Positions 7,200 to 64,000 of a DNA stretch of 64,000 nucleotides are shown here, one piece after another. Source of the DNA: Lepidodermella squamata (taxonomy: Eukaryota > Animalia > Gastrotricha); the NCBI GenBank assembly GCA_047495785.1, contig JBLDXI010000030.1:558001-622000 (forward strand), read 5' to 3'. Numbering within the stretch: the stretch's first letter is position 1; each line of letters starts with the position of its first letter. A program made the translations under genes and the position numbers. The notes below the pieces were generated by a model. That model had not been told where the DNA came from, ran no database searches, and was given only the letters and a program-made list of their open reading frames with translations.

Positions 7200-7358
7200 A
7201 TAGGAACGAACCAACTATCTAAATTTGAAACTCACTATCCATCGAAGCAGGGCAGGCCCATGTCACACTCCCATAAGGAACACTTAGGCTTACTTCGGCG
7301 GAGCTGCAGCTGCAGCGACAAAAAGACTGATGGCAACGATTCCAATGGCTGATTTCAT
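7200..7358 (-). pseudogene. Knottin pseudogene C (paralog of gene B exon 1)
   Basis: MKSAIGIVAISLFVAAAAPPK* arises from a 1-nt insertion relative to gene B. The downstream frame gives CSLWECDMGLPCFDG (CC changed to CF) then a GT donor. No intact later exons. The upstream motif is retained. Confidence 0.75.
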
Positions 7359-24548: not shown

Positions 24549-26963
24549 ATGCTACTGCTCTTAAATTGGTCAGTTTTCTTGCTAGCACTCATGAACAGCC
24601 CGGAGATTTGCCTCCCGAAATCTCATTCGCTGCTCGTGCCAGTCTTCACTTATGGTCTCGAAGTTTTGAATTCTTCTGCCATGTCAGATGCAGCAGAAGA
24701 GGAAAGGTGTTCAAAAGTGGCTTTAACTTTTCTAGTTGACAGCATAAATTCGAACCTAAGAATTCTGCCGAATTATCGTTTGCAGCTTCAATTTTTTGAC
24801 ACAGAACTTCCTTTCCTCTCCCAGGACATTGTAAGCTTCTATAAGCCTATTGAGTCAGAAATTCGGGAAAACACATTGCTCTCCCCATTCTTCATGGGAC
24901 CCAAGCTTTCTTTGAAACCTGAAGAGGTCAAATTTCAGCGTATTTTCCAGGTGATAAGAGCGTCTTTATCATTGTCTCAAGTCCAGAATCAATTCGGTCT
25001 TTTCTGGTGGACGTGGCCAGTAGACATCTGGATGGACATTCCCAGCAACACCTTTATCAAACATGCGACCATTAATACGATCCTTCATATTGGAAAGTGG
25101 CGCCAAATCGCCTTGTTGTCCATTGATGCAGAAGATTATAGATCTGCTGATGTTCTTATTCGAAATTCGACGATTTTCGATGCAAACGGCATAGAAGTCG
25201 TTCAAGCTGAGGTTGGGGTGTCATACAATGAATTCCTAGCCGTGAAGAAGCTCGGCCTAGCTAGGATTCTCGTTCTATCAGGGACCTTTCTACCTGATGA
25301 TTGTCCGAGGATTTATTGTGACAGCTACGCAGCAGGGATTCGAGCCCCGGAATACGTCATGTTCTTCCCGAATTCAGCTTGCGTTGGCTACAAAGTTGAT
25401 ACAACGGCTTCTCTGTGCGACCTGTCAATTCAATACCAGCAAATCAGAATATCTTTGTTTCTCACCCATTGGACAACGGATCCCCTCTTTTATCTATATG
25501 CCCCTGCCGTCTATGCGGTAGTAGACAGCGAGTATCTGTACAGTAAATCAGGTCAAGCTAAAGCCCTAATGATGGAAAAATGTCCATTCGATGCGTTTAA
25601 ATTAGCTGCATTGAATCGTCAATTACTTAGCGGTCTTTTCCTTCTTAACGCGACAGAGGCAGCGCTGAAGCCACGCAATCTCAGTCTCCGAGATTACCGA
25701 AGCGGCAATCCAGGTTCAACTCTTGTTAGTCAAACTTTCGCTGAAATGGGGAGCCGTTTCGAATACTTTCGGTCGAACAATAAGAAATATTTGCTTATGA
25801 CTGGGACATCTTTCCTGGTACAGAGAACTGGAAAGGGAGTGACGGGTAGCGATTTCATTTTTCGAGTGAATTTTACCGGAAATCGAGCTACATTTCAAAA
25901 TATATCCACCCAAACAATTGAATTTATGTCCCCCATAAATTGGGCGACTCTAAATGGTAAAACACCGAAAGATCTATCAACAGTCTTGAGCATCCAAGGT
26001 TCAATTGACCTCACAGCGATCTATGTACTGTGCGCTCTGGCTACTTTAATATTTTTCATCGAAATAACTATTGGAATCGTTGCTATTGCTGTTATCAAAG
26101 GTAAAATCAAATCGGATGGAACTCCTTACTTCAACACATGCAGTGGATTTGCGATTCTTCTCGGCTGTTTGCTCCTGAATGTATCAGTTTATGTCATTAT
26201 GCTCGGCCCGGTGTATTTTCCTGGAATTAACTGTAATATTCGGGATTTGTTCACTGTGGTCGGATTGTCAATGGTAAACTCAGCGTTGTACATTCGAATG
26301 GCTACTATGGTGTACTTTATGAATTTGCATTTCTACGTCAGCCGAAGTGTAAGAAAAAGGGTGTCATTCAGCGTCACTGAGTCAGAGAAGGATAGACGTG
26401 AGGCGATGATTGCCCTTCAAAGGGTAATCGTTCAAGGGATATCGATAATTGTAGCAACATGCACGCTGATTTTTGTCATATGGCAAATTGCTGAGCCAAT
26501 GAGTTACATTTCAAGCTTTACTGAAACTGAATTCAGTTCAGAACTCGACTCTTTCTACAACATTGAAGTACGGTCCTGTTGGTCAAAGAACAGTTACTAC
26601 TTGTTAATAACGCTGGTGTTGATTCAGGTCATATTGCTATTCCTGGGTTGCTTTCAAGCTGCTTTTATACGGACATCCTCTATTTCGTGGCTTCGAGCTA
26701 GATTTCAGCTTGATGTCAAGACTTATCGTATTGCTGTATGGAACGCTCTGTTCATCACTATAGCGGTTATTTTTGGAGAACTGGCGCTGACAAAAGATAA
26801 GCCCTCTCGAGCTTACCAAGGCACGACGTTAGTTGCTAGTGGTCTTGTGGTCTACTCAATATCCACAGTTGTAGCTATTTTCTTCGGATTCATACAATCC
26901 CCACAACAAACTTTGCGAAGATACCTCAGGAAAACGACTATCGCCTCTGCAAGATTAACATGA
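24549..26963 (+). CDS. Class C GPCR, GABA-B-like, intronless; paralog of 16971-19373
   Basis: 804 aa; long runs identical to the 16971 protein (DIPSNTFIKHATINTILHIGKWRQIALLS; CDSYAAGIRAPEYVMFFPNS; FQLDVKTYR). Confidence 0.85.
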   Translation: MLLLLNWSVFLLALMNSPEICLPKSHSLLVPVFTYGLEVLNSSAMSDAAEEERCSKVALTFLVDSINSNLRILPNYRLQLQFFDTELPFLSQDIVSFYKPIESEIRENTLLSPFFMGPKLSLKPEEVKFQRIFQVIRASLSLSQVQNQFGLFWWTWPVDIWMDIPSNTFIKHATINTILHIGKWRQIALLSIDAEDYRSADVLIRNSTIFDANGIEVVQAEVGVSYNEFLAVKKLGLARILVLSGTFLPDDCPRIYCDSYAAGIRAPEYVMFFPNSACVGYKVDTTASLCDLSIQYQQIRISLFLTHWTTDPLFYLYAPAVYAVVDSEYLYSKSGQAKALMMEKCPFDAFKLAALNRQLLSGLFLLNATEAALKPRNLSLRDYRSGNPGSTLVSQTFAEMGSRFEYFRSNNKKYLLMTGTSFLVQRTGKGVTGSDFIFRVNFTGNRATFQNISTQTIEFMSPINWATLNGKTPKDLSTVLSIQGSIDLTAIYVLCALATLIFFIEITIGIVAIAVIKGKIKSDGTPYFNTCSGFAILLGCLLLNVSVYVIMLGPVYFPGINCNIRDLFTVVGLSMVNSALYIRMATMVYFMNLHFYVSRSVRKRVSFSVTESEKDRREAMIALQRVIVQGISIIVATCTLIFVIWQIAEPMSYISSFTETEFSSELDSFYNIEVRSCWSKNSYYLLITLVLIQVILLFLGCFQAAFIRTSSISWLRARFQLDVKTYRIAVWNALFITIAVIFGELALTKDKPSRAYQGTTLVASGLVVYSISTVVAIFFGFIQSPQQTLRRYLRKTTIASARLT

Positions 26964-45887: not shown

Positions 45888-46921
45888 CAGGGTATGATAC
45901 CGACCGGTTTTTTTGTTGAAAAAACCAATGGCAAATAATGTAAAGAGAATTCCTAATAACGTAAATAAAATAAAAATTACAGTAGTACCACCATGGGTAG
46001 TATTCAGGGTATTTATTCTGAACGGTTTTTATTCTGAAAAAACCGCCCACCAGTTTAAACCGATTTATACCGGTAATAAACACCGGTTTTTTAATTTCAC
46101 CGGTTTAAACCGGTTTAAACCGGTGAAAAAAACCGGTTTATTTTATATATGCTAAAATCACTGAAATGTCTTATTTGACATAGCCAGAGCTCGCTAGCAC
46201 TTGGTCCTTTAGAGATTTGGACTGTACCACGTGATTCTACGTGAAAAACTGCATATCACACGGCCATTTTTCTCACCCGGAATAAAAAAATCTCTTAGTG
46301 CAATAAAACAATAGAAAAAAACTAAAAAGCGCAGTTATCTCCGGAAGTATGATGACTAGTAAAGTTCTGAGAACGGATTCGGATCCGCCGGAGTTTCTAC
46401 GGGGGGTTTCAACGACAAAGAAAGCGGTTTTGCCGGTTTTATTTGAAAATTTCAACTTGAAAGGTCTAAAACCGCCTAATTATACCCTACCGGGAGTAAA
46501 ACTGATTTCAGGATAGTTTGTTTACCATGATCAATATCTTCATGAAAATTTGGGATCTAAGGTAGAATTTTCCGCTGAACACGATGGTGACATCGAATCA
46601 ACCGCATCGATTATCGAATATCGATTATTGGTAACTGATCGAATGATCGATTTTTCGAAATTTAGCACAATCGATTTTATGTAATACAGTGTAGTCTTTC
46701 GAAAGTATTGCGGCTGTGCGGTATTGATCCTGGGGACATAATGACTCTTAGACAACTTCTGGCTGGCTGTTATATATGAAAATGTGAGCTTTTTGCGGGA
46801 AAACACCCCAAAAACCGCTTTTTCAAAAAACCGCGGTTTATTCAGGCCCTACAAAAACCGGTATAAACCGGTACCGGTTTCAACCGGTTTATACTGGTTT
46901 GAGTTTAAACCGAATACCCTG
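45888..46921. mobile_element. Non-autonomous hAT-type DNA transposon (~1.03 kb)
   Basis: Termini CAGGGTAT...ATACCCTG with an exact 8-bp target-site duplication AAATCAAA (45880-45887 and 46922-46929). Dense subterminal AAACCG/CGGTTT repeats at both ends; no long ORF. Confidence 0.85.
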
Positions 46922-47270
46922 AAATCAAAGCTATACATACATATACATACAGCCATTGCGGCAACACTGCCGCAGTAGCGCCGGGAGAATCTTAGAGACT
47001 GATAATAACAATATATACTTAATATACTTAATGTTAGTAAACATTTCGAGTCGTTCGAATATAATTGAACCGTTCGAAATCCTATTGGAAATAAAAATGC
47101 GCGCGTGGATTAAACATAGGCGGGCCTGGAAATGTGCATTCAATTCAGTGTGCGAAGTAGATCTGGGGATAACTCGGCCAGTAGTACTCTAGAATCTTAT
47201 CATTCTTCGGCCGGTTGAACTGGGAGTACCGTACTTCCAGTCTCCCCGCTACTTCTCTCGGTGTGTGCAT

Positions 47271-47967
47271 TTAAGATAACATCAGTGAGAAGAGAATTGC
47301 GTCAATAATCATTACAATTAGCACTGCTGAGAGAGCTATTGCCATGTCAAGAAGGCGATGCAAGGGTAAGACCAGGAAATTTTTCAACTTGAAAACACGA
47401 GATTTCTGTGACTCTGGGATACTAGGACTCAAGCAAGTGTAGGCCGTGATTACGACTGCAACAATGAATTTAACTGCGACCATGTAGACAAGGTAGACAT
47501 GATCTGAAGTCTTTGGCATCATGCCGAAGATCAAAGTGAGAAATACAATGTAAGAAAGCACGACAGTCACGCAAAACGCAGATTGGTCCCTATTCATAGG
47601 TTCGGCCATCAAAGAGACGACTTGTAAGATGAAAAGGGTGATGGTTGGCACGAAGATATTGCAAAAGTAGTAGCCACTTTTTCGGCGAAATCGAATCGTC
47701 ATAAAAATTCGATCAAAAGAGAACAGGTTATCTTGCTGCAATTCACTGCTGTTATACCCGAATACCTCGACAAGCGACCAAATGTCACTATCAACGATAA
47801 AGCTGTTGCCAGCGGACATGTCGACTTGCAACACTGAAAGGCGGAGCGCTAGGAATCTGTGATCATCACTGGATTCTAAAACTAGCGAACAGTCTTGCGT
47901 ATCGAAGGGAAATTTGCGGTAGCTGAATGCCGTGCAAGTAGTATGTGACGACCAAAATATTCCGATC
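47271..47967 (-). pseudogene. 3' half of a Cys-loop channel gene; 5' half absent or displaced by the Maverick insertion
   Basis: IFWSSHTTCTAFSYRKFPFDTQDC and four TM helices are intact. Similarity stops at ~47,970, where element sequence begins; no signal peptide or N-terminal exons nearby. Confidence 0.7.
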
Positions 47968-48443
47968 TGTGACCGTTGAGAATACCCGAAAAAACCCGAT
48001 AATACCCGGTAGTACCCGATTCTCCATGGCAACGCGGGGTCGCGCATATCAGATCATTGAATATTAATCGACGCGATTAATAACACAAATAAATTTATAT
48101 GGGGATTTTATTTCGTCATTTTCGTCATTTTTCAGATTATGTCACGCAAATGTCATCATTTTTGTAATTTTTCGCACTTTTTGATACAATAACACCTCTC
48201 AGACAAGGTGTGAATTATCGCCGCGGGAAAAAGAATGCGTGCACAGGAACGTGGGTCAAGAGGTGACGCCCACAATGGGAGTTATCAGAACACAATAGGT
48301 CACAACACCACTAGAAATCACGCATTCGACCCGTCTAAAATCTGCGGATTGACAACTTTTCTTTACAACCGCCGCGGCATCGCAAGCATTAACATCAGCA
48401 GAGTTGAACAACATTCATCGCCGGACAAATTCAAGTAGCTAGC

Positions 48444-49867
48444 ATGAATAAAGTGAGTAATACTTCCATGTGTGGAGCAAAAAAAAACACACATTCATTC
48501 AATATATAATTTTAACGGTTTTTCACTAATTTTAGTCTTCTTCGTGCGATTCCTTATCAACCAATGGCGAAAATGCAATATTCGACGACGACGACACGCC
48601 GAATTTGACGCTGATCGCACCGCACTTACCGGCTACTTGCATGGCCGCCAGCACGGCGAATGTTCATGTCGGCGGATGTCCCGCGCCGAATCGACGAATT
48701 TCGCTGTTCGCTGTAAATCATGCATCGAATTGTCGGGGCACATCGACCCGCTCCCCTACCAGGCTTCGTAACACCCCGGTTGTCATCCCCCTGCACCGTC
48801 TCGATAGGGCGACATCCCAGCTGAGAAATCGCTTCGTAAATATTCCGCTCAATTATTTTGTCGAATCGTCATCCTCATCGCCCTCTGATCCGAGTATTTC
48901 TGGCGGTTTCAGCCCTGACGTTCCCAGTTATGGCAGCGGTAGCGATGTTTCGAACGATTTAGTTTTTTTTACATCTAATTCGAGTTGTACATCGGCTAGT
49001 AAATCGGATGAATTTGAGCAGTTTTCGCCGCTTCCGTTGTCGACGTCTTCATCTCCATCGGTGCTTTCAACACCGTCATCATTAGACGTGGCCTTGAAAT
49101 ATTATGACGTATCAAATGAAACCGTCTGTTTTTCCTGCGAAAAAGCATCCGTCCAAACATTCGAATTCAACGTTTGCCATCATCAAATGTGTTCTGCTTG
49201 TCTCTTCACCGATATCGATTATTCGGCATTTTCATTCGACGTTCAAATTTGCCCGGCATATTATTGCCGCGGTATGCTTCCCCAGACAGTAACTCCTCTT
49301 CGCGACCACATTTATCCAAACGACTACTTCGAGGGGAGAGACTGTTTTCCGGCGACTAAATTCTGCGCAAATTGCAGCGCCGACGTTCCGCTCGCCCGTC
49401 GCAACAGGGCGATAGTACAGTGCCAGATTTGTGAGTCGGCGTATTGCGGCCACTGCAGCATATTCAAACTCAACCATGCGTTCGAAGTTGCCAATCGCCA
49501 ATTGCAACGATTCCCGGAAACAATTACCGCATCAGACATATGCAGGGTGACTAAACACGACGGTTGCGATTCAAGATTCGCCTGCAATGCCGACGTTGAA
49601 AACTCTGAGCCACACGTTACTTCTATCAGCAACAAACTTGTGTCCCGCATTATTTATGACCACGATGTTTTGCCATCAATTGAGGCCACTGTGCAGCTAA
49701 TCCATGCCCGTGGAGAAGATGTCCGCGAAATCGCGGAATCTGCTCGCCTTTTACCCGACAAAAAGGACAAATTCACCAGGCTGATGCGCGCTGCAGCTGT
49801 CGCCGACGTTCTCGGGTGCGCTTATTTACGACGCTATTACAGACTTATGGCGAAGGCGGTCTATTAA
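48444..49867 (+). CDS. RING + B-box (TRIM-like) putative E3 ligase; exons 48444-48452, 48536-49867
   Basis: ATG-AAT-AAA|GTGAGT...CACTAAT..TTAG| splices in frame to the 420 aa ORF. RING-like CFSC...CHHQMCSAC...CPAYYC; B-box-like FCANC...CQICESAYCGHC..H; helical C-terminus. Confidence 0.7.
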
Positions 49868-50078
49868 ATAAAAAAAATAAAATTAAAATAAAAATTAATT
49901 CTCATTTTTTCAATACTATTCACTAGTTCTCAGTGTGTGTCTGTTCTTATCTGATTTGTTGCTGTTACCATTTTTGATTATACTAGCATGGCTCGCAGTA
50001 AATGAATTGTATAAAGCTGCATTTTATTGTTCATGATTGCTCATTACTCGAATTTTTTGTTGTTGCGATAAATAAATA

Positions 50079-50666
50079 ATGACGGATCAAGAACTCATCG
50101 CGGACTTTTATGTGTCAAATATTGTTAGCAGTTTTTCGATAAAAACTAATTTGGATCTCAAGAAACTAGCCAGAACGTTGCATAACACGGAGTACCGAAA
50201 TAAAAATTTGAAAAGTGCGCTCGTTGTTCGGTTCAAAAAACCCCGAAAATTTACAGCTTTAATTTTTGGTTCTGGTAAAATTATTGTTACCGGTTCTCGC
50301 ACTGAGACAGAAGCCAGAGAAAATTCGCGCATTATTGCTCGAAAAATTCAAATTAAATGCGGATATTTATTAGCCAAATTTGCCGAATTCAAAATCATTA
50401 ACGCAGCAGTTCATGGGCGCCTACCTATTGCAACACCTTTGAACCCTCAGAATTTCGCGGTGATAATGCGTGAGATATGTCTTACAGCGCTATGGGATAT
50501 AAAATTCCCGGCCGGGTGTCGATTAGTGTTGCGTGAGTACCCAACGTTGAAAATCACCGTATACTACACGGGCGCGGCGATAATATGCGGATGGAAGCTG
50601 TGTATTACTCAACTCAATAACGCGCTAAACGCTGTGATAATGCGTGCACTACAAGCAACCGCTTAA
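50079..50666 (+). CDS. TATA-binding protein (TBP)-like, core domain only
   Basis: SNIVSSF..LDLKKLA..NTEY...ALVVRFKKPRKFTALIFGSGKIIVTGSRTE.EAR...R.IARKIQ is TBP repeat 1. A divergent second repeat follows (FKIIN...FPAG...TVYYTGAAIICG). Confidence 0.88.
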   Translation: MTDQELIADFYVSNIVSSFSIKTNLDLKKLARTLHNTEYRNKNLKSALVVRFKKPRKFTALIFGSGKIIVTGSRTETEARENSRIIARKIQIKCGYLLAKFAEFKIINAAVHGRLPIATPLNPQNFAVIMREICLTALWDIKFPAGCRLVLREYPTLKITVYYTGAAIICGWKLCITQLNNALNAVIMRALQATA

Positions 50667-51038
50667 CAAGTGAGCATGATCACGCTAAAACTGTAAAAGT
50701 ATATATTTCCTCACACCGATTTTATTGGACCCGAAAAAATGTAACCGCCACTTGAATTCTCAGCATCGCGGCGGGTGCAACCGTTACAGCGGCGAATTGC
50801 ACCCAACGCATACCTCGCGTGATGCGACAAAACTCCCCCGCCGCGGTCGCCTGTTTAATGAGGAAAGCGGCGGCGAGCCAGTATGACAGTTTTAAAGGCG
50901 GTGCCATCGCGCTATCTCCTACCGGCTACAACCGGAAAATCGCGGCTTGTCTAAAATACGATGCATTCACGCCAATATAAATACGCCCTAATTTGTCGAT
51001 TAGTCTCTCATCAGTCTACCTGGAGGCAACACCAGCAA

Positions 51039-51066
51039 CTCTCTCTCTCTCTCTCTCTCTCTCTCT
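51039..51066. repeat. (CT)n microsatellite upstream of the PC4-like ORF
   Basis: About 14 CT units. Confidence 0.9.
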
Positions 51067-51093
51067 TGCATCAGTACATACATCATCAATAGC

Positions 51094-51729
51094 ATGACTA
51101 GCTCTGTAGTAAACGATTTTTTCTTCAAAAACTCACCAGTTATCGAGGTCGAAACTGCCGGAGATGTAGTATCAGACTCTCAGCAAATTTCGCTAGATCC
51201 ATCGACTCTGGATGGCAAAAGTCGATTGTCCATTTTCTCCAGGTTTCGTCAACACGTCCCTGCAAAAGTTGCAAAAATGTCACATTTAGCAGCTAATTCA
51301 CTCGATGGCGAATCGTATGTTATGTTGGCACTCGTCGATGCAGACTGCGATGACCCACTCTACTGCTTGGGAGTTTTTAACAAATCGGAGGCTCCTAAGT
51401 CTTATTATTTACGCAAAGGCCTATATCTGTTCAAATCTGAACTGGTAGACATCCTTAAGGCCATTAAAGAAGCTAGGGTTAACTGGGTGTCCAGCGTGGT
51501 TGAAAAACTAGCTGCTGAGGAGTTGCCTCTTGGAAACTCGCCACCCTATCGAGTTTGTGGCAATTTGTACGCCAAAGTTTTCGCTTATCGCGGCAAACTT
51601 GGGCTTTGCAAACTAGTCGACCTCAGGATTCACAAACAGGACAATACTGCAACGGTGGATGGCATCGCGCTTAAGGAGGACGAGTTTCAAAAGTTACCCG
51701 CGGCTATCGAGACTATCCTTGCAGACTAG
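51094..51729 (+). CDS. PC4-like ssDNA-binding/coactivator protein (possibly two PC4-type repeats)
   Basis: C-terminal AKVFAYRG...LVDLRIHK...ATVDGIALKEDEFQKL resembles the PC4 pattern (V..FKG..LIDIR....PTKKGISL...QW..L). An earlier RKGLYLFKSEL segment may be a second copy. Confidence 0.6.
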   Translation: MTSSVVNDFFFKNSPVIEVETAGDVVSDSQQISLDPSTLDGKSRLSIFSRFRQHVPAKVAKMSHLAANSLDGESYVMLALVDADCDDPLYCLGVFNKSEAPKSYYLRKGLYLFKSELVDILKAIKEARVNWVSSVVEKLAAEELPLGNSPPYRVCGNLYAKVFAYRGKLGLCKLVDLRIHKQDNTATVDGIALKEDEFQKLPAAIETILAD

Positions 51730-51866
51730 TTCTTGATAATTAAAACTACCTTAAAAAAAAAACTGTTTCTTGCATTAAAATTGTAAATATTGTACATAAT
51801 CATGCATTGTTTTTTTTGTGTTATTTTAGGCTTTATAAAATCTTAAAAATCATCAAATTAAATTAA

Positions 51867-52127
51867 ATGGCCGACCTTAGCTCGTATTCCGGCGCATTCA
51901 AGCAGCACATTCAGCAAGCCCTGGAGCTGACGCGTTCGTGCTCAGATGACGATGAGTCTCAATACAAGCGCTACCAGCGTGCTGCTAGCGAGGTGTTGCG
52001 TCTCGAAAACGGCATGGTTGAAAAGGTACGCCAGCTTGCTCTCGCCCTTCAGCCGTCGAACGCTGTCGCCCGCCTGATCAAGGCCGCCATTCTCAATCTC
52101 GTCGACCCAGAAATCGATCAAGCGTAA
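51867..52127 (+). CDS. Small helical hypothetical protein
   Basis: 86 aa GC-richer ORF flanked by AT-rich spacers. Confidence 0.5.
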   Translation: MADLSSYSGAFKQHIQQALELTRSCSDDDESQYKRYQRAASEVLRLENGMVEKVRQLALALQPSNAVARLIKAAILNLVDPEIDQA

Positions 52128-52338
52128 CATAACCAATCTGTATCTGTAAAATATGCAAAAATGGTCCATTTTTAATTGTAACAAATTAAGGAGTAAAATT
52201 ATTGGTCTGTTATTTTTTTGTGTCGTGTTGTTTATCACACACATACCGCTAAATAGCTAATTGGTGGAGGGACAGACAAATTTATATGCCAAAATTCCAT
52301 CTAAAAAAATCTATCTCGTTGTTCTAGATGATTTGTTT

Positions 52339-55300
52339 ATGGAATTGAAAAAAACTAGTCAGCTAGAACTCTCGAGAAAATTCAATTTGGGTATCACAAC
52401 TTACGTATTTCGCGAAAATGAAGCATCAAATTCAATCACCACCCCCCAAAATCAGTCAGGCGAAGGCCGCCCCGCAAAACGTCGTCGTCGAGTCTCCGTC
52501 GCCACCACCACCACCTCCAACCCCTCAATCATCAAAACAGCGCCGAAAAATTCAACCACCCAAAAAAAAGGTGATAACATCCTCCAATCCGACACCCAGG
52601 GTTCCCAAGTTTCCGATAGTTCCGAAATCTCAGTCGACCCCCATACCCAATCACCCAATCAGTCAGCTGTTAGCCCAGTCAATACCACAGATAAGGGTGT
52701 ACAAGGTTCAACAACTAAGCGAGCAACCGTCGACATCGTCGACCAATTCAAAGAGCTTTACGCTAGTTATCTACAAATATCAGCAGCCATAACTCGGGAC
52801 TTCCAACCACGGGACTATGTTAGACTCATTATTTGCAACGATAGCCTACTTCAAACCCCAATTTGTACAAAATATCTGAAAGTTGAGAATTTTACTGTTG
52901 ATGAGGTGGTATCGCAAACGTCAAAAGTTCTCAATTCGAAACAGGCCCTCTCTCATAAGTGAGTTCCTTCAGCAGTTATAAAAAAAATTGCCTCCTTAAA
53001 ATCTTAACATTTGTTTTCTATTACCCTTAAGTCCCAACGATTGGAAGATTTATGTGAAACACGTTAAGGTGGGCGAAGGAGTTAAAGGGGCAGCATCCCG
53101 AGCAAAAATAGGAGAAAAAATCACATCATTTCTCGCGCGCTTAACCTCCATCCTATTGATTTACACCGACGCGTCTTTGCCGGACAATAACTACTGCTTG
53201 TTCAGGTCGGTTGTCGTTGGGAAAGGGGCTAGGGATTTCGAAGCCGGCCGCATTTCAACACACTCGTGGGATCTACTGAGGTATAACGCTCGCCATCAAA
53301 CTATTAGAGCTAAGCAGCTAATGAATTCTGCCAAAATTCCATTAAATAAACAACGATACGACGTAGACGATTTAGACCTAATCTACCCAGTCCTGAGAGC
53401 TGAGAATCCTAATTATCAGCTCGTAGTTTTCAACATATCCAATAAAGCCCTCGTGAAATGTTTACCTCATTCGTTACCCCACTGTCATCAGTCCGAGATC
53501 GAACGAATATTCATTCTCTACATCCCTCCCGAAGAAATGGTGTCGAGTGATCTTACCTCAATTGGTCATTTTTGCGCTGCCAAGTCGATCGGTGCAGTGA
53601 TTCCGGATTTTTGCCTGGTGTGTCTGAAACAGGTCCGTAGTTTGAGGCGGCATAAGTGTCGTACTTCCGACCAACGACAGTGCCATCGATGCTTCATGTA
53701 CAACAACCCGTCGTGCTTCGTTGCATCGTCCCCATCGACGTATCAGTATTGCGCTTCTTGTTTTCGGGCCTTCGCATCAGCTGAGTGTTATGATCGCCAT
53801 CTGCAAATACAAAAATTTACAAAAACAATCACAACGACTGCGTGTGAGCGATATGCTTACTGTTCGGAATGTCGAGGCACGGTATTAAGGGGGCGGTTAA
53901 CAAAACATAAGCATCGAAAACCCTCATGCCCACACTGCGGAGTGGTACTCAGCACATGGCCAGTTAGTGAGAAAGATGCTGATCCTGAAGAAATAGAACA
54001 TGTAACAACTAGAAACGACCACGTGTGTTGCCTGCCCGTGTTTAAGCCCAAGGTTTATGGTTCGAAATCTGACACTAAGAATAGGTATTTTAACTTGACC
54101 GACTGGCCAATCACTATTTGCGCCGATATCGAAACGGTGAAAGAATCCAATTCGATTCTCTCGCCTGTACTCGTGTGCGCAAAAATTCACTGCGAATTAT
54201 GTCGAGAATTTTCTTCGAGCCAAATTTGCGATTTTTGTGCCCCCTCTGACCACGTTTTTATCACACAAGACCCCGCATGGCAGTGCAAAAATGAGCCAGT
54301 CAAAAATTTCTTGCAATTCATTTTCAAACTTTGTGAGGAAAAGAACAAAAAAATCTTGGTCTTTTTCCACAATTTGCGAGGTAAATTTAAAAAAAAAACA
54401 CCACCACCAGTACTATAAATTTTCCAATAATTAATCAAAAGGTTTCGATGGATTCTTCGTGCTACAAGCTCTTCATGATTTGAAAATTCGAATCAAGACA
54501 GTGGAAAATAACGGGCTTCTTACTTGCATCGAAGTGAAGAAAAAAATCAAGTTTCTTGATAGCCTGAATTTCATGCAACAAAAATTGTCCTCGCTACCTA
54601 GCATGTTTGGCTACTCGGAAACTAAAACCATTTTCCCCATCGAGTGGCTAACTCCCGAGCATTTTGATCGCAATTGTCAAGGCGCGATTCCCCCCTTAGA
54701 CGCATTTACACCACGTCAACGCTCGGAAGATATGGCACTTATCAAGCAATGCCAAGCTAGAGGATTGTATTATAAGGAGGATCTAACAGCATATTGTTTG
54801 AACGATTGCGAGGTGAGCATGCGAAAAAATAGCTATATGATTTTATATTATTGCTGGTTTTTTTATGCTCAAAGGTTCTAAAGAAAGCTGTTATCGCATT
54901 TCAATCTATGATTCGAAACCTCACAACTTGTGATCGCTTTCCTACCGGATGGGACCCGTACGAAAATAGCATGACAATTTCGTCCCTAAGGTAATATCCT
55001 AGTTCATCACCACCTCTCCTAACACCAATTGGACCCATTTTCAGCCAAAATATCTACCGATCAGTATTCATGACCCCATCCAGTATTACCCTTATACCAG
55101 AAAAAGGATTCAACAGCAATAACAACCAAACAAGTGACTTGGCAGATATGTTCCTTACCTGGTTAAGTGTCCGGGATCAGTTGTACTTGCAAACAGCTTT
55201 CAACATCGGCGAAAAACGCATCTTCATCCCAGAATTGAACAAATACGTCCGCGTCGATGGCTACCAGGACCGGTCGGAATTAAATCAACCTGATCTAGTT

Positions 55301-57241
55301 GTTGAGGTTTGCCCATTGGCAATCTCTTGCACTGTTTTAATCGCCTTTTTCCGTTTCATTTTCATGTTCACTCGAAGATATGCGGCTGCTTCTATCATTC
55401 GTAAGCACAACAAAATTTTGAAATTTTTTATTAAAAATTATGTTTCATTTACCAAGGTGTGACCAGTGCTTTGCTGTACATCATCAGCATGGATCGCTCC
55501 ATCCTATTGCACGAGTCTCGCATCAAACCGTGTTCAACAGCACCATTCGCAGGCTAGACGCCATTAAGAACGCCGGCTACAACGTGGTTGTTTACTGGGA
55601 ACATGAAATTAAACAGCTGGAAAGGACGGATCTGGCTTTTCGAGCTTTTGCCGAAAATTGGCGAAGTAATCGCGACGACTCAGTGACTCCATTGAAACCG
55701 AGAGACGCCCTGTTTGGAGGTAATGAAAAAAATTGCATAATTATTAAAATGTGATTATTGAAATATTCCGTATATTAGGGAGGGTGGAAGTATTTGCAGG
55801 TCACATCAGGTCGACTGAGACATCGAAAATATGGCACTACGACGTTGTTAGGTGAAATAGTACAAAAAATTACTTCAATTATTATTTGTATTTTTTTTCT
55901 AGCATGTATCCGTACATTCAATTCTCTCACAATTTCGGCGTTGGGCCAGTGTGTAAGAAGTCTTTGCAGTTGCGCGGAAATGACGCGGCTATTCGCAGCT
56001 ACATTCTCAGTGCTGAGAATTTCGGGCGATGTTATGGACTTATTAAAGTTAAAATAGCCGGCCCCTGGCCATCTATGACTCCCAAGTGTCTACCTCCAGT
56101 TCTTCCGATTAGAATAAAAAAGCGTACTTACTATGCTTTATGTGCGAAATGTGCTGAGATACACGAGCAAAATCAATGTGAGCACAAACAACCCATAGAT
56201 CGCGCGTGGACGGGGACATATACGTTAGCTGAAATTTACACTGCGTTAGAGGAAGGGTACCACTTGATAGAAGCGTATGAACTCTGGGTTTGGCCAGATA
56301 CTAGTAACAACCTATTTCGGCCGTTTATCGCTAAATTAATGGCGTTAAAAATAGAGGCTTCGCCATTTGAGCACGCGGATGACAAAGAAATGCGCGAAAA
56401 CTTTGCCAAACAATGTCGCGACCAGCAGAACCTAGAGATTAACCCAGATAAACTGACAAAATCAGGCACGCCTGCGATGAGATCGACAGTGAAACAAGCG
56501 CTAAATAGTAATTGGGGTAAACTTGCGCAACGGGCATCATGCGAGCGAGTAATATACGCTGATACTAGGAAAGATCTACTCGATATATGGGCAGACCCTG
56601 AAAAAACCATTATTGACTTGCAACCGATAGGTCGCAATGACGCGAGTCAGAGAGTAAGGATTGTATACGAAACTAGTGACGAATACGTTACAACGCTAAA
56701 AACCACAAATCTAGTTCTCGCCGCGCATATAACTGCATATGGGCGCCTTTATCTGTTCAAATCGATGAAAGCGTTGATAGCAGCAGGGGCAAAGCTAGTC
56801 TATTGCGATACTGACTCGATTGTTTTTGCCGCCGCAAATGATGATTCTGAGTGGCGCGAAGCTATAAAAGTTGGAAATATGTTAGGCGAATGGTCGAATG
56901 AATGTGGGGACGAAAGTACGTTCATCGACGAATTCATCAGCCTAGGGTGCAAACTGTACAGCGCAAAACTATCATCAGGGGTTGTAAAGCTGCGGGCAAA
57001 AGGAATATCACGAAATTTGAAATACTCACCTGACGATGTGTGTTCATTTGAAAACATGAAACACCTATTGACCAACCATTTTAGCGACGCGAAGAAATTA
57101 CCAGTTCCGCAGACCACCATGAAGCGGATGAGGGCACCAGTAGCAGGGATTAGGGTAGATGAAGGAATGAAGTGCATAGGTATCACTCTAAATAAGCGGC
57201 GATTTAACGCAAGCGACTTGTCGACATCGGACCCTTACTAG
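52339..57241 (+). CDS. Protein-primed family B DNA polymerase (pPolB), 9 exons, 1471 aa, with OTU-like and VSR-like accessory domains
   Basis: Exons 52339-52958, 53032-54380, 54442-54812, 54875-54990, 55045-55306, 55378-55400, 55457-55719, 55779-55851, 55903-57241 total 4416 nt (1472 codons, in frame). Motifs: ADIET (ExoI), HNLRG|FDG (ExoII), YCLNDCE|VL (ExoIII), E|ICGCFYHS|C, LFG|GRVE, YDVVS|MYP (motif A), KQALNSNWGK (motif B), YCDTDS (motif C). Confidence 0.93.
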
Positions 57242-57302
57242 CTCTCTCTCCCTCTCTCTCTCTCCCCTCCCATTCTCTCCCTCCCATTCTCTCCCTCCCT
57301 CT
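57242..57302. repeat. CT-rich low-complexity tract directly after the pPolB stop
   Basis: ctctctctcc... with repeated CCCATTCTCTCCCT units, followed by AATAAA at ~57316. Confidence 0.8.
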
Positions 57303-57428
57303 GTGTGTAAATAACAATAAAAATTTGAAAAAATCCAACTACATCAGTGTAATTTTTATATACCCTTAGAAATATTGCCGAATTGTTATTACGCTGCTCA
57401 TCGTATCGCAAACATCAAAGCCATCATC

Positions 57429-57983
57429 ATGGACCGAGACCTCACAGAATATGACCAGATTATAACCCCGAGCCTTACCCTACAGGTAACAAGACTGAAC
57501 ACATACATCTGCTCGCGATATCTCACGTTCACAATGTCATCCCGCCATTTTCTTGATGAATTCGCCCCGGCTTTGCTGCGCTCGGCAGCAAATTTTGTGC
57601 ATGCTGCCGCGGCGGATGTCAGCGACGTGGACTCGAGCATCTATCGGCCGGAGTTACTATATGGGTACCAGCCAACCGTCTACACAGTGCTAGGCCCGCA
57701 CTGTGTAGCACGCGACTACTACATATCGCTGACCAAACAACCAAACTCGCCAGCAATGACTGTAGTGATAAATCAGCTGAAGTATGCCTTCGACAAGTCT
57801 TTGCACTACCACTTCCTCGAATCGGTCCACAATGAGATCACCATCGGATATGAATCCGAATTCAAACTCCTGGTCGATGCTGTGGAGTACGTGATGGTCA
57901 ATGAGGAGTTGAGACGCTGTATGTCGCAGCTTAGGGACAACGACCACGATGAGGAGGAAGAAGAGGAGGACGACGAATACTAA
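57429..57983 (+). CDS. Hypothetical element protein with acidic C-terminal tail
   Basis: ORF ending in DNDHDEEEEEEDDEY; no family recognised. Confidence 0.6.
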   Translation: MDRDLTEYDQIITPSLTLQVTRLNTYICSRYLTFTMSSRHFLDEFAPALLRSAANFVHAAAADVSDVDSSIYRPELLYGYQPTVYTVLGPHCVARDYYISLTKQPNSPAMTVVINQLKYAFDKSLHYHFLESVHNEITIGYESEFKLLVDAVEYVMVNEELRRCMSQLRDNDHDEEEEEEDDEY

Positions 57984-58319
57984 TCTGTGATATCGGTGTA
58001 ATGATCTACCCTCCCTCGCAAGTCACCTACTGGTATTTATGTACATCTTACCTATAATTGTCATGTATCATTGCAGTGCTGTATAAACTACTTATATCCA
58101 ACTACCAATCTATATATCTGTTCTTTTTCTACATAACGAAAAAAAATCGCAACTAAAAATAAATATTAATCGCCATCTTGATTAATAATCGCCACGTTAT
58201 CCCAGTTTCGTTTTTTTTTTATCTACAAAAATTATATACCCACCAATAAACAGTATAGCATTGTAATTAATAATAATTTTTGTAATTTTTAGACTTGCTT
58301 ATTTCTAATTTCTAATTCT

Positions 58320-59294
58320 ATGGCGCTACCAACAATCACGCGGACCGTTTTCACCCCCGCCCTGGTTCGACGCGACATCTGCAACAACGTGACGCTAGCC
58401 TTCGCCCACTGCGTAGAACAAAACCTGAAAGGTGTCATGTTGATGACAAATGGTGTGACTGCGGATCCTCATTACACCGAAGTCGTCGACAGCGAGGACG
58501 AAGGGTTGGTTGGCGACTCCCAAACGCATCTATCGCACGAAATTACTCCCAATGACGCGAGAGTCTATGCCGACAAGACCTCTCGGCACGTCATTGCGGA
58601 GTATGACTGCCAATATACCATCATATTGTCGCATCTCAATTTCCTCTACAGCGAGTGTCAGCCTGAGTGGTCTAATAACCAGGGCGGTGGGGCGGAACCA
58701 GATGTCACTTATTTCGGCGGAACCCCCACTTTCGACTATGTCATGTGGCTGACCTTGAAATACATTCGTGATGGGTGCATGAATCGACTGGGTATCGCGA
58801 ACGCGCCTACAACCTTTCCGTGTTCTCAGACGACCTATCTGTCGTATGAAAATCGCCCAGTAGAAGAGTCAGAGACTGACTACGGCGTAGCTTCTGCGCT
58901 ATTTGACCGACTTGCAGGGGCAACGGTTGCTACCCTGCGACTTGAAGACGTACGAGTGGTTGGCAAGTACCTTTTGAACGGTACTGTTGTACGCGTGCAC
59001 GTTTCATATGTAGAAATGGGGCGGAGATATCTATTAAGCGAGAAGGTCACAGGGGTAGCCTTAAACGAGTTAGTAGCATCGGTGGGCAGTGTGCTCTACG
59101 TGTCGACCACGGGGGTGATGCCAACCGTATCCCTGCGACGTATTGTTTCGGCCCTTCGAGTTTGGGCTGACCCAATGCGTGTCTACTCAACGGAGGAAAC
59201 CAGACAACTCTATTCTAACGAGTTAGGAGCCATCATGGACCGCATTCTGCTAGCAATGTTACATCTGGCTACCGTTGAACCAATGGACACATAA
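58320..59294 (+). CDS. Hypothetical 324 aa element protein
   Basis: ATG-initiated long ORF after an AT-rich spacer; no family recognised. Confidence 0.7.
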   Translation: MALPTITRTVFTPALVRRDICNNVTLAFAHCVEQNLKGVMLMTNGVTADPHYTEVVDSEDEGLVGDSQTHLSHEITPNDARVYADKTSRHVIAEYDCQYTIILSHLNFLYSECQPEWSNNQGGGAEPDVTYFGGTPTFDYVMWLTLKYIRDGCMNRLGIANAPTTFPCSQTTYLSYENRPVEESETDYGVASALFDRLAGATVATLRLEDVRVVGKYLLNGTVVRVHVSYVEMGRRYLLSEKVTGVALNELVASVGSVLYVSTTGVMPTVSLRRIVSALRVWADPMRVYSTEETRQLYSNELGAIMDRILLAMLHLATVEPMDT

Positions 59295-59914
59295 TAGTAA
59301 GATTAGGATAACTTTCTAGTTGGTAGTCTACTACTGAGTCACAAGAACATAACTGCCAGCCAGCCACGCCGATATATAGAACTACTACTACTACTTTCTA
59401 AGGGTTTGTCTTCGCGTGCCACACACACACGCCAATACACACAAACCAATAATTAACATACTTACCTCGTTAATTATCCGCTTTTGAGCCCGCGTTGGGT
59501 GCGTGTGTGAGTTTTTCGCCACCAATCCACCAAATTCCTTGATTTTCTCTGTGTGTTGAAGTACCGTCACGTGTATTAATTAGGAGCTCGTACACACGTT
59601 GCGATTTGTATTGTTATTGATCCGCTATCGTCGTCGTCGTCGTCGTCGTCGTAATCGTCCCACCTTTGCTTTTCGTGGTTGCGGACTGCAGTGTTCTTCA
59701 CTGCACACTCAGGGGGCGCATGCACGCATCGGCGCCTTCTCGATCGTAACAACTCGGAGGTAAATACTAGGGCTACCACTGCTGCACCTGGTGCTCCATC
59801 TATGATTGGCTAATTGCTTGCGTGCAACGTGTACAAACATTCCGGCTTTTTTTCTCCTCATCTTCGTCTTCATCCTTCATTCATTTGAAGTCGTCACATC
59901 GTCATCATAAATCG

Positions 59915-59989
59915 ATGCTTCTTAATCCAGCTGTGTGCATAACTTCGTCGCTGTCGGTCGTAGCAGGTGAGCCATCGGGGGGTCGCCCC

Positions 59990-60024
<35 letters not shown>

Positions 60025-60304
60025 AGACCGTCCGCCCGCTGCATATCCGGTATCGTCTGTAAATAATAATAATAATAATAATAATAATGGTCATCAGCCA
60101 ATTGGTGTGCTGTTGCATCAATCACATACCAGTAGTAGTAGTATTAATAGCAGCGTCGTCGTCGGTAGTTCCAATATTAACAGTAACACCAGTGTTAGTA
60201 CTCACTACTGCGTGTTTCAAATTTGCACATATACCATAGTTGTGTTCATAACTATCGCAAGTCTAATATATGTAATCTATGAAATGATCGAATCATTGAT
60301 ATAA
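59915..60304 (+). CDS. Low-complexity (poly-Pro, poly-Asn) protein with C-terminal hydrophobic helix
   Basis: MLLNPAV...P12...N9...; (CCG)n and (AAT)n repeats are in frame; ends IVVFITIASLIYVIYEMIESLI. Confidence 0.4.
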
Positions 60305-60550
60305 ATATATGTATCATTCATGAATATATTAATCAAAAAAATGACACATGTGAACTGTAAAGACGATGTCAACAATAATAACCGGGATGATGATGATGAT
60401 AATCTTGTCTATGAGTTATGCGATCTGACTGACTGCGCGGGCACAGCGGGGATTTAAAAAAAATTTACCGCTCAAGGCCTTGTACATGAATTATTAAAAA
60501 ATCTTCAATGTTTAACAATTTCTTGTTTTTTTTTAGTTTTGAAAATTATT

Positions 60551-61326
60551 ATGCTACATAGCAACTGGGATTTTCCTTGGCAACGCGACGTCGCCGGTAT
60601 CGGATCGATTCGACTCATCATTGGACCAATGTTCAGGTACGTTGCATATATTTTATGATGATCAATATAAGTTAATTGCTTCTATTCAATAGTGGGAAAT
60701 CAGCAGAGCTGCATCGTAGAGTCAACAAATATGCTGAAGCTGAATGTGGTGTCGTGCTGATTCAATATGCGTATCCCATTGTCGACCGTATTCATGGGTG
60801 CACCGCAACTCTGCACAGAAATGTGGCAATTCGCTCACTGCAGTCACTCGAATCATCTGTTACGCTGACCTCAATGAACAATTATCGTTTGATTGCAATC
60901 GACGATGGGCAATTCTTTCCGTCTGATTTGGCAGTTGTTGCTCATCGAATGGCTAGCGCTGGGAAGGATGTGATAATCGCATCACTGGATTCTGATTTTG
61001 CTCGTCGACCTTTTTATCATATTGCAGACCTGATTTGTCGAGCGGAAAGTGTTTCAAAACTATTGGCAGTATGCAAAAACTGTCTGAACCCTCACGGGCT
61101 ATACACCTATCGATGGTCAAGCGATAATACTCTTCGTGTGTATGGTCGTGGTAACTACGTTGCTCTGTGTCGCCGGTGCTATTTGGAATTTCAAATGCTC
61201 GCCGGGTCAATAGCCAACCAAGAACAACAACAACAACAACAGCAGCAATCATCTTCATCCGCAACAACGGCAGCAGCCTCATCTATATCTTCTTCTGTAG
61301 AATTCTCATCATCGTCGATTCTGTAG
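60551..61326 (+). CDS. Thymidine kinase (TK1/poxvirus type II family); exons 60551-60636, 60693-61326
   Basis: Removing a 56-nt intron restores the P-loop GPMFS|GKSAEL. Also IAIDDGQFF, IIASLDSDFARRPF, KLLAVCKNC and YVALCRRC (Zn lasso); poly-Q/S tail. Confidence 0.88.
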
Positions 61327-61424: not shown

Positions 61425-62498
61425 TTAATTATTAAATCCTATCCAATTAAGATTAGTTGGGTTCAATGAGTTAGGCTGAGTGGAACTGCTTGTAAATTTG
61501 TGTTTCTTTGTCACTGGTGTAGGGTGCATGGATGTTGCTGTTTTTGTTGGTGATGGCTGTGTCTGGTTCAAATTTGCAAATGACCCTTTCGGGTACAACG
61601 ATTGATTAGATATCAGATTTTTCGGCATGTTTGTCAGCTCGATCAATTTTTTGATGTTTTTAACTGCTGGTGAAGCAATAGGCTTTTGGGAGTTTTTTGC
61701 AGTAATGTAATTTAAAGCCTCATGTGCGTTCAATCGATGTTCGACCCCCTCATCGTCCCCAAATATAATTTGTTGATTTGGGAGATCAAATTGAACACCG
61801 TGATCTTTCGATGCAATCGTTGTCAGAAATGTGCATATACTGTCGGCAGTGGATCGTTGTGCTGGTTTGAACCCTTTGTATAGGGCCGCTATGTCCTTGT
61901 TAACTTTCTCATCACTACTAATATCACCGCCCAGCCTACTCTTCTTCTTATTAGCTGATTCCTGGCCGTTATTATTTGCTGTGGTAGCAGTATCAGTAAC
62001 CGTCCGTGATGTGTTGAGTTGCGTCGCTGGTGTTGCGTTTGATAGATTAGAGCCTATCCCATTTTCATTAGCATAGAATAGCTTTCTAAACAATGAGTAA
62101 TCATCTTCGTTATCAGATTCTTGAGTTTTATTAGGCTCTGTTGGCGTTGAGGGCGATGGACGTTTGTTAGTACTAGAGCGTCTAGCATCCAATAATTTAA
62201 TGTCTTTTTGAAGGGCCTGAAACTGTGTGAATAACTCTCCAAATTTTCTCATCGTATCGCTATACGTCATGCCAGGCGGAGGATGTGATAGTTGCAAAAT
62301 GTTACCCATTTCATCTGATACTGTTTGTAGTTTGGACATTTCTACAGGGTCCATGAGTGTTTGTTTAAGCATAGCGCGTTTAGTAATTGCTTCCATTGGG
62401 GACTGATGGGCGTGTGATGTTGCTGTAGTTGTTGTTGGTTGTGGTTGTGTTGCTGAGGAATATGGCACAATCATGTATCGTTTTGCCGTGGTTTTCAT
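61425..62498 (-). CDS. Maverick-type hypothetical (putative core) protein
   Basis: 357 aa; AKRYMIVP N-terminus, EMGNIL, and NMPKNLISN near the C-terminus resemble an ORF I recall from Maverick morphogenetic modules. It is co-oriented with the ATPase and protease. Confidence 0.55.
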   Translation of the reverse strand: MKTTAKRYMIVPYSSATQPQPTTTTATSHAHQSPMEAITKRAMLKQTLMDPVEMSKLQTVSDEMGNILQLSHPPPGMTYSDTMRKFGELFTQFQALQKDIKLLDARRSSTNKRPSPSTPTEPNKTQESDNEDDYSLFRKLFYANENGIGSNLSNATPATQLNTSRTVTDTATTANNNGQESANKKKSRLGGDISSDEKVNKDIAALYKGFKPAQRSTADSICTFLTTIASKDHGVQFDLPNQQIIFGDDEGVEHRLNAHEALNYITAKNSQKPIASPAVKNIKKLIELTNMPKNLISNQSLYPKGSFANLNQTQPSPTKTATSMHPTPVTKKHKFTSSSTQPNSLNPTNLNWIGFNN

Positions 62499-62510: not shown

Positions 62511-62891
62511 TTACTTTCCTCGATTTACTATCGACTCAATTAATGTTGGAATAAGGCTAGTTAGGGATGAAAGTAAGATAGGAATGAATGCCCCTTGTCC
62601 ACTTTGAATCAGGCGCTGTCGGCTTTGCTCGATACTATTGCCTTGGCCAACTTTTTTTATGGCGTTTCTATACTGTTTCAATCTGCGCACTGTGTTTGGT
62701 GGAAGTTTCTGATTTTTCGCTAGCACATTTAACGCGATTTCCGCTATTATATGAATTACGGAGGATGGTGCAATTTGTAACAATAAACCTCGTTCTTTTT
62801 TATTCTTAGCATTAATAATGAGTCGTAAAAAGTGCATCAATCGTTTGGCCTTGGATTTCCGGTGTTTATTGGTGCCGGGGTTGCGTGCCAT
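62511..62891 (-). CDS. Basic putative core/membrane-active virion protein with protease-cleavage-like site
   Basis: Lys/Arg-rich; IAEIALNVL; ends QSGQG|AFIPILLSSLTSLIPTLIESIV, a Gly-rich adenain-type site followed by an amphipathic helix, typical of the small ORF next to Maverick ATPases. Confidence 0.65.
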   Translation of the reverse strand: MARNPGTNKHRKSKAKRLMHFLRLIINAKNKKERGLLLQIAPSSVIHIIAEIALNVLAKNQKLPPNTVRRLKQYRNAIKKVGQGNSIEQSRQRLIQSGQGAFIPILLSSLTSLIPTLIESIVNRGK

Positions 62892-62915: not shown

Positions 62916-63692
62916 CTACTCTGTCGTGGAAAGTGATTTTGCGAATGACACGTCGTTTACATACTTGGGCACGCGCTCCGTGTATGTGTCTGGTAGAAAA
63001 ATGGACCCTCCGGCAAATTCAGCTCCGATCCCGAGAAAATCACGTACCCGATAAAACTCGGGTATATTGTGACGCAAATCTAGCACCAAATACTGGTAAG
63101 GTTTACTGGTAATTTTAGTAAATGCATCAAATATTTGTCTCCAAATTGTAGGCTCGGATTTCATGAGTAGTATTTTAACTGACATCGTTTCCGATCTGTT
63201 GCGATACAAGATGAAAATGTCAGTGTTTGCCGCGATTATGGACGAATATTTTCCCCGCGGATGAACGCGTTGCTGGCTGATCATTATCGAAACGTTACAG
63301 TGGTGTTTAAAACGCGTAAAATAATCCGCAATCAATTCGCTGTCATGTGCTCGCAAAAAATTGTCCTCAATTATCATCAACGACGTGTCACTTGGTGCGA
63401 AATAATCAGCGGTCAGATCGTCGATCCCGTTCAGGAATTCGATTTTCACCCCGCGGGCTTTGTACACATCCTGAGCGAGCTTGTCATGGTAGTCGGGGGT
63501 ATTGACCCCATAGCAATAGACAATTCGATTCGGTCTTGGGACGAATATATCAGCATCTAGCAACATTTGGCGAGTGGTTGTCGATTTTCCTGAACCCGAG
63601 TTCCCGATCAACGCAATCGTGACTGGTAAGTGAATTGAACCAATTATCTCCATTTCCGCCCCTGATTGGTAGCTTGCTGACATGATTGGCAA
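62916..63692 (-). CDS. Genome-packaging ATPase (A32/FtsK-HerA superfamily)
   Basis: Walker A GNSGSGKST, RIVYCYG, Walker B LMIIED, FTRFKHHCNVSIMISQQ, KPYQYLVLDL. The start codon may be 63683 or 63653. Confidence 0.9.
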   Translation of the reverse strand: MPIMSASYQSGAEMEIIGSIHLPVTIALIGNSGSGKSTTTRQMLLDADIFVPRPNRIVYCYGVNTPDYHDKLAQDVYKARGVKIEFLNGIDDLTADYFAPSDTSLMIIEDNFLRAHDSELIADYFTRFKHHCNVSIMISQQRVHPRGKYSSIIAANTDIFILYRNRSETMSVKILLMKSEPTIWRQIFDAFTKITSKPYQYLVLDLRHNIPEFYRVRDFLGIGAEFAGGSIFLPDTYTERVPKYVNDVSFAKSLSTTE

Positions 63693-64000
63693 AATTTCTT
63701 TGGATTAATTTTTTCGCTTATCAACCCTTTTCCGAATAGTTTTCGAGCGAAAGCGTGAATATGGCAATCTATAGATGTGCACGGTGCGATGTATGGCGAA
63801 AATATACTTGAAATTATATTTTTCATAGACAAATTTCTCGCTCTGTAGTATAAATAGACTAGCGAAAATTCACCACAAGTTGATGTTAACGGGGATTGCA
63901 CAGGTGCTTGATTTATTTCATAAATTCCACCGCTCCTTGATGATGTAATTTTTAAAAATCGCTCGATCACTGGATTATATTCGCGCATGTTTCGTGCCAG
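63644..64000 (-). CDS. Adenain/Ulp1-like maturation cysteine protease, C-terminal part (N-terminus beyond the window)
   Basis: VQSPLTSTCGEFSLVYL contains the oxyanion Gln and catalytic Cys (Q-x6-CG). Adjacent to the ATPase. Confidence 0.8.
   Translation of the reverse strand: MARNMREYNPVIERFLKITSSRSGGIYEINQAPVQSPLTSTCGEFSLVYLYYRARNLSMKNIISSIFSPYIAPCTSIDCHIHAFARKLFGKGLISEKINPKKFCQSCQQATNQGRKWR

Follow-up and report, generated by a model that had tools for sequence, protein, structure and literature searches.

What kind of element occupies the right-hand end of the 64,000-nucleotide (nt) stretch of Lepidodermella squamata DNA analyzed here (the window), where a protein-primed DNA polymerase (pPolB) shares the plus strand with genes for a TATA-binding protein (TBP), a PC4-like protein, a thymidine kinase (TK) and a RING protein? 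An earlier note took it for an enlarged polintovirus, possibly of an undescribed family between Polintons and larger nuclear DNA viruses. We think it probable that this is a Maverick/Polinton inserted in a host ion channel gene, in which a spliced cassette of early genes on the plus strand faces a virion module on the minus strand, and which is likely young. It is a genuine Maverick-like element whose accessory genes are unusual and whose polymerase is rich in introns; the evidence does not support a new connection to large viruses.

The window was compared with contigs of X1, which may be its source or a close relative and is not independent support, with contigs of X2, a run only guessed to be RNA, and with 98 Polinton loci (18 viral and 80 metagenomic, the latter the best 80 of at least 440), each with a pPolB alignment. 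The ranking of these loci by long exon favors intronless genes, and only 36 of the 98 reach 9 kb.

A Polymerase Gene in Nine Exons

52339..57241, plus strand: protein-primed DNA polymerase B, 9 exons, ~1,470 amino acids (aa) (PF03175; start codon uncertain)
52959-53031, 54381-54441, 54813-54874, 54991-55044, plus strand: pPolB introns 1-4, GT-AG
55307-55377, 55401-55456, 55720-55778, 55852-55902, plus strand: pPolB introns 5-8, GT-AG

The polymerase, which the earlier note had correctly placed in the plus-strand block without noticing its eight introns, passes the Pfam cut-off (PF03175) and has 24 homologues at 24-31% identity. In tblastn with these homologues, the matches switch between reading frames, and eight GT-AG introns of 51-73 nt account for every break. 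Several introns fall in conserved polymerase motifs (one exon ends in FHNLR and the next continues with FDGFF; another ends in HYDVV and is followed by MYPYI), and the chain includes a micro-exon of 23 nt. Every exon is free of stop codons, retention of any intron would cause a frameshift or stop, and once the introns are removed, the exons are colinear with intronless homologues. With X placed at the breaks, the exon chain aligns to 15 homologues as a single long segment whose spacing over the breaks is maintained: a 12-residue window over each break corresponds to 10-13 residues in seven of the eight best homologue alignments, the eighth having one outlier (break 1 is covered in three of the eight). 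The introns are host-sized, candidate host introns measuring 50-82 nt with a median of 58 (n = 23, heuristic picks). Introners are known in dinoflagellate polinton-like elements (PMC12166617); such an origin is not supported here, since in comparison with shuffled sequence p fell below 0.05 for 3 of 36 intron pairs, which is near chance for AT-rich sequence.

Introns in pPolB are rare among the comparison loci. One open reading frame (ORF) covers all seven internal break positions in 52 of the 98, extra DNA separates colinear pPolB matches in seven, and GT-AG junctions were found by eye in four (L038, L043, L050, L078). The extra DNA of L071 and L097 was rejected as intronic because the stretches viewed contain no splice junction, and that of L027 because it lacks a donor motif. 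Both L038 and L043 have an intron whose site and phase are identical to those of intron 8 in the window, and one intron of L043 and one of L050 lie 1 nt off introns 2 and 6. L038 and L043 nest among intronless relatives, apart from the window element. In a FastTree phylogeny of 102 rows, which omitted L050 and rows under 300 aa, the window pPolB forms a long branch (at most 31% identity) outside every starred group.

As a separate observation, X2 contains antisense GT-AG joints on the minus strand at 55392-55452 and 51260-51875 (one contig each at a depth of ~4, the shorter sides measuring 22 and 33 nt). They hint that spliced antisense transcripts overlap pPolB and the PC4-like gene.

Left Terminus, Insertion Site, and Age

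47271..47936, minus strand: 3' portion of a host ligand-gated ion channel gene (Pfam Neur_chan; paralogues in the window)
47937..48020, plus strand: left terminus, AGTAGT start (sequence; TRF; X1 junction contig)

The insertion cuts the host channel gene within its Cys-loop exon. Ten X1 contigs track this gene to 47936 and then switch to other channel-like sequence; the predicted 6-bp target duplication is CGTGCA (47931-47936). The element begins with AGTAGT, or (AGT)2, the end motif of vertebrate Mavericks (PMC8097293), behind which lie four 10-bp tandem units at 47981-48020 (TRF). In another X1 contig, 47937 adjoins foreign flanking sequence that does not begin with the predicted duplication, and we therefore regard it as a second insertion. 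The terminus lies to the left of every gene of the block, not to the right, as the earlier note had considered possible, and all accessory genes are therefore inside the element. Its start had been set at 48444, which is more likely the ATG of a micro-exon of the RING gene.

The window contains 16,064 bp of the element, which gives a minimum length of 16.1 kb. One X1 contig spans 60100-64000, the region of TK, ATPase and protease, and extends 5,753 nt further; if all of this extension belongs to the element, the length is likely at least 21.8 kb. This falls in the range of 15-25 kb typical of Mavericks/Polintons (PMC6431247), so that “enlarged” is not supported.

The main X1 contigs differ by 12 substitutions across ~13.6 kb, whereas 22 of 319 letters differ between two X1 contigs that represent one host flank, which suggests a young element. 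Five of seven coding substitutions relative to the X1 copy are synonymous. X1 also holds diverged fragments that match TBP (~90% over 104 nt, with 9 substitutions and one gap), pPolB (12 substitutions in 94 nt) and the start of a 324-aa ORF. Because of these pieces, sister elements probably carry TBP, pPolB and the 324-aa ORF. At 47958-47999, X1 has loose ends on both sides, the right one resembling the sequence behind the terminal repeats, which suggests that there may be a sister family with another outer end.

The Two Gene Modules

48444..49867, plus strand: RING-IBR (RBR-like) zinc-finger protein, likely E3 ligase (weak Pfam; Cys/His spacing)
50079..50666, plus strand: divergent two-repeat TBP (PF00352 E 1.3e-20)
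51094..51729, plus strand: probable tandem PC4/PUR/Whirly-fold protein, 211 aa (signals each weak alone)
51867..52127, plus strand: 86-aa orphan (X1 differences: two synonymous, one conservative)
57429..57983, plus strand: 184-aa orphan with acidic tail (no match in homology searches)
58320..59294, plus strand: 324-aa orphan (Atlas best 0.89, unnamed, lead only)
59915..60304, plus strand: 129-aa low-complexity ORF with hydrophobic C-terminus (coding status doubtful)
60551..61326, plus strand: TK1-type thymidine kinase (PF00265 E 3.3e-23; intron 60637-60692)
61425..62498, minus strand: 357-aa low-complexity ORF (no homologue found among the Polinton loci)
62511..62891, minus strand: small conserved Polinton ORF beside the ATPase (phmmer E 3e-11 to the ATPase-adjacent ORF of L076)
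62916..63683, minus strand: genome-packaging ATPase (tblastn E 1.5e-19 to the L047 ATPase)
63644..64000, minus strand: C-terminal end of a probable adenain-like cysteine protease, continuing past the window (E 3e-6 to L076, pairwise)

With pPolB, the plus strand of 48444-61326 holds nine genes or gene candidates. On the minus strand, the ATPase matches those of four Polinton loci at E ~1e-19, and the L047 ATPase in turn matches Pox_A32. The ORF at 62511..62891 also matches in five loci besides L076 and is likely PM / protein X-like. Only the C-terminal 118 aa of the protease lie in the window, with weak matches to three loci.

The TBP announced by the earlier note passes its Pfam cut-off; both repeats align, with ~33% identity to canonical TBP. 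At 33-44% identity to its best matches it is too divergent to be the host's own gene. A word-indexed search with it gave no match at E 0.001 and a scan of IMG/VR no relative, while two of the 98 Polinton loci, L036 and L047, have a TBP. L047:1-7440 carries pPolB, TBP, two BIR genes and an ATPase; in L036:1-10614, TBP stands directly behind the integrase and ahead of downstream genes. In a FastTree phylogeny of 58 TBP rows, the three Polinton TBPs sit ungrouped on long branches, with no starred support either way. A Caenorhabditis nigoni gene model with pPolB and a TBP domain (P0009) was rejected as a precedent, its TBP piece being a host-like half repeat. A TBP-like gene is named in the legend to Figure 5, on MELD-virus, of Starrett et al. 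(PMC8502044).

The TK is equally secure as a gene on the plus strand: it passes its Pfam cut-off, matches solved TK1-type kinases at E 5e-25 and retains the P-loop, which its intron interrupts, and the four zinc-site Cys. An X2 contig starts exactly at the acceptor AG (60691). TK scores are equal against poxvirus, trypanosome and human enzymes. A word-indexed search with exon 2 found no match at E 0.001, an IMG/VR scan no relative, and the 98 Polinton loci no convincing TK, the best hit (E 0.018) being a 50-aa frame inside a polymerase. TK-like genes sit on bidnavirus segments (Buck et al., 10.1101/2024.03.25.586562). No description of a TK in a Maverick, nor of an element combining TBP, PC4-like protein, TK and RING, was found in the literature searched, which included the supplements of PMC8502044 and PMC8097293, where the searched terms are absent; gene maps in figures and bioRxiv supplements could affect the novelty of TK and TBP. 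By term searches, neither Jeong et al. nor a 2026 preprint mentions TBP or spliceosomal introns in these genes.

The PC4-like protein, found where the earlier note had put it, is a probable tandem PC4/PUR fold and putatively binds single-stranded DNA; the lines of evidence agree although individually weak. The full-length protein has no Pfam match, and the top matches in the ESM Atlas are PC4 clusters (0.76-0.77, lead only). A viral fold search with its model found nothing at E 0.001, the 98 loci contain no relative at a convincing E-value, and a possible L047 counterpart was discarded for lack of similarity.

The RING gene probably has a 9-nt (three-codon) first exon and an in-frame intron at 48453-48535; one X2 contig continues unspliced beyond the donor of this intron. 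The last RING cysteines of RBR ligases are four residues apart, and so are those of this protein. It has no PDB match, and no relative at a convincing E-value was found in the 98 loci. Another X2 contig ends at 49078 in an untemplated run of 23 A, inside the gene just before the RING domain, a possible premature polyadenylation or library artefact.

Six of the nine plus-strand ORFs have a TATA[AT]A box within 160 nt upstream, whereas shuffled sequence gives 2.6 (p = 0.0145). Pyrimidine-rich, acceptor-like AG sites occur within 130 nt upstream of six of the nine (raw count), namely before the ATGs at 48641, 50079, 51094, 52339, 58320 and 60551; these are possible leader introns or trans-splice sites.

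Comparison With Known Systems

Three features characteristic of Mavericks/Polintons, pPolB, a packaging ATPase and a left-end AGTAGT, are present in the window; “intronless core genes”, a customary description rather than a strict criterion, does not apply to a polymerase with eight introns. With animal Mavericks/Polintons of the adintovirus type, the element shares AGTAGT, pPolB, ATPase, a probable adenain-like protease and the small ORF beside the ATPase; animal Mavericks likewise have two inward-facing modules and an accessory region, at sizes of 12.7-24.6 kb (PMC8097293). Intact vertebrate Mavericks, however, are reported to be intronless and to have the ATPase in the pPolB module (Barreat and Katzourakis, PMC8097293), whereas here pPolB is split, the ATPase lies with the protease on the opposite strand, and the gene set additionally includes TBP, TK and a PC4-like gene. 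TBP-bearing Polinton/MELD elements (PMC8502044; L036, L047) likewise combine a divergent two-repeat TBP with pPolB and have no RNA polymerase. In L036 and L047, TBP differs in position, the quick tree gives no sign of common origin with the window TBP, and the stretch examined has no TK; the pPolB of L036 is one ORF. Nematode Mavericks with cargo also have extra intron-containing genes near the left terminus, but their core genes are intronless and their cargo consists of proteases and kinases with close cross-species identity (Widen et al., 10.1101/2022.07.12.499685); in the window the core polymerase itself is spliced. Bidnaviruses similarly have TK-like genes in small viruses with a Polinton-type PolB, but are single-stranded and often segmented (10.1101/2024.03.25.586562).

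Adenoviruses combine protein-primed replication with spliced early genes and a single-stranded DNA-binding protein, a likeness to what is proposed here for the window element. Unlike adenoviruses, however, it sits integrated in host DNA and has introns within the coding sequence of the polymerase.

Proposed Cycle and Alternative Explanations

If the element is a young Maverick with a spliced early cassette, ordinary TATA boxes would let host RNA polymerase II transcribe the genes of the plus strand, and the host-sized introns would be excised by the spliceosome, so that replication would depend on nuclear transcription and splicing. The polymerase would then copy the excised linear genome by protein priming, while the tandem PC4/PUR protein might coat the displaced strand during strand-displacement replication, as the adenovirus DNA-binding protein does. 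TK could raise dTTP in non-dividing cells, the RING-IBR protein could redirect ubiquitylation, and the altered TBP could help to transcribe the minus-strand packaging and capsid genes. That the element represents a whole deep-branching, active family of animal polintoviruses with an adenovirus-like cycle, in which spliced early genes provide single-stranded DNA-binding protein, TK and ligase for replication in non-dividing cells, a private TBP turns on the virion genes and the nine-exon polymerase hides the lineage from ORF-based screens, is a bolder suggestion that we hold doubtful.

Several observations weigh against this account. X2, which is thin over pPolB, contains no sense-strand splice joint among the joints listed, and the canonical ones listed are antisense only. 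Neither integrase nor capsid was recognized in the 16,064 bp of element within the window, in keeping with the earlier statement that more than 16 kb pass before either appears; a retroviral-like integrase, a double jelly-roll major capsid and penton, the right terminal inverted repeat and the target-site duplication would fall beyond the window end. Ahead of the three minus-strand genes in view, too few to judge, there is neither a late-promoter box (TAAGA, ATAAAC) nor a non-canonical box common to them. The diverged TBP copy in X1 was not seen linked to a pPolB. Four Phe residues intercalate in canonical TBP, itself a protein of two repeats; in the element's TBP the first is missing, Tyr takes the place of the fourth, and the remaining two are conserved. 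By alignment, TK has Asp at the position of the catalytic base of human TK1, Glu98 (PMC8757434). X1 and X2 contigs show zero substituted letters across TK exon 2, so that the Asp is not an error of the window, and because of it the “own nucleotide supply” of the earlier note is unproven. PF02229 matches the C-terminal 71 aa of the PC4-like protein at a sub-threshold E of 0.11, and Foldseek ranks Pur-alpha repeats I-II first (E 7e-4) for a model with pLDDT 40. All Pfam signals of the RING protein are below curated cut-offs (zf-C3HC4 E 0.0018, IBR_1 E 0.0019, B-box E 1.1), and its single-sequence model is uninformative (pLDDT 38). A zinc-finger gene does lie where the earlier note placed it. TRIM ligases combine RING, B-box and coiled coil; from these E-values and the RBR-like cysteine spacing, RING-IBR is weakly preferred over the “TRIM-like” class first assigned.

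The best-surviving alternative, though an unlikely one, is that the accessory genes contribute nothing to the element's cycle and, like the cargo regions of nematode Mavericks, represent captured cargo or passengers in decay. The Glu-to-Asp change in TK, the lost Phe of TBP and the incomplete third zinc cluster of the RING protein would fit decay, TK occurs in none of the 98 related loci, and nematode Mavericks have intron-bearing cargo genes (10.1101/2022.07.12.499685). However, the ORFs remain unbroken and are distant from every cellular homologue, the core polymerase bears introns of the same kind, diverged copies of TBP and of the 324-aa ORF exist in X1, and TBP recurs in unrelated Polintons.

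Rather improbable is a long-resident transposon lineage whose virion phase is lost or being lost, whose introns were gained in vertical passage and whose TBP is maybe a decoy rather than an activator. Intron sizes match those of the host, pPolB lies on a long branch without a close relative, capsid genes are not seen in the window part, and the X1 depth of the element (145-174) is near that of one host flank (87+55), a weak hint of low copy number. Yet no damage is seen in the ATPase, in the conserved ORF next to it or in the visible part of the protease, and at least 5.7 kb of contiguous sequence lie beyond the window. Adenoviruses, moreover, splice and still form virions.

That the element belongs to an enlarged and undescribed family standing between Polintons and large nuclear DNA viruses is highly improbable. 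In favor of it, the combination of TBP, PC4-like protein, TK and RING was not found in the literature searched, and none of the 101 other tree rows exceeds 31% identity to pPolB. But the likely size is ordinary, and the replicase, ATPase, protease and terminus all belong to the standard Maverick equipment. The PolB is protein-primed, not nucleic-acid-primed as in large nuclear or giant DNA viruses, and no RNA polymerase or helicase-primase was recognized among the ORFs scanned in the visible 16 kb. TBP occurs in ordinary Polintons too, the window TBP does not group with the other two Polinton TBPs in a quick tree of long, unstarred branches, and TK scores equally against poxvirus, trypanosome and human enzymes.

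Surrounding Host Region

At 11054-47936 there are at least six ligand-gated ion channel paralogues, and many similar X1 contigs cover 47336-48002, which points to a large and young family. Six single-ORF genes of 758-804 aa lie at 4149-45523, of which the one scanned encodes a class C G protein-coupled receptor-like protein and two form a large inverted pair (16971-19373, 24549-26963). The minus strand of 800-15800 carries an array of repeated small exons, cysteine-rich in coding, with introns of ~58 nt. A high-copy repeat at 46000-47100, with ACCGGTTTAA-type units and a summed X1 depth of ~1,230, is likely a small non-autonomous transposon.

Implications for Mavericks

Intact Mavericks have been described as intronless (PMC8097293; 10.1101/2022.07.12.499685), which this likely young element, with eight introns in its polymerase, does not fit. 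Searches based on ORFs would miss such lineages or score them as dead. The element would tie replication to host splicing and provide a dated example of how a mobile genome gains introns, one of which recurs in distant elements at exactly the same site and phase. With TK, Mavericks would acquire a metabolic gene new to them. Together, TBP, the PC4-like protein and TK make an early/late program in Mavericks testable, which bears on whether Mavericks are viruses.

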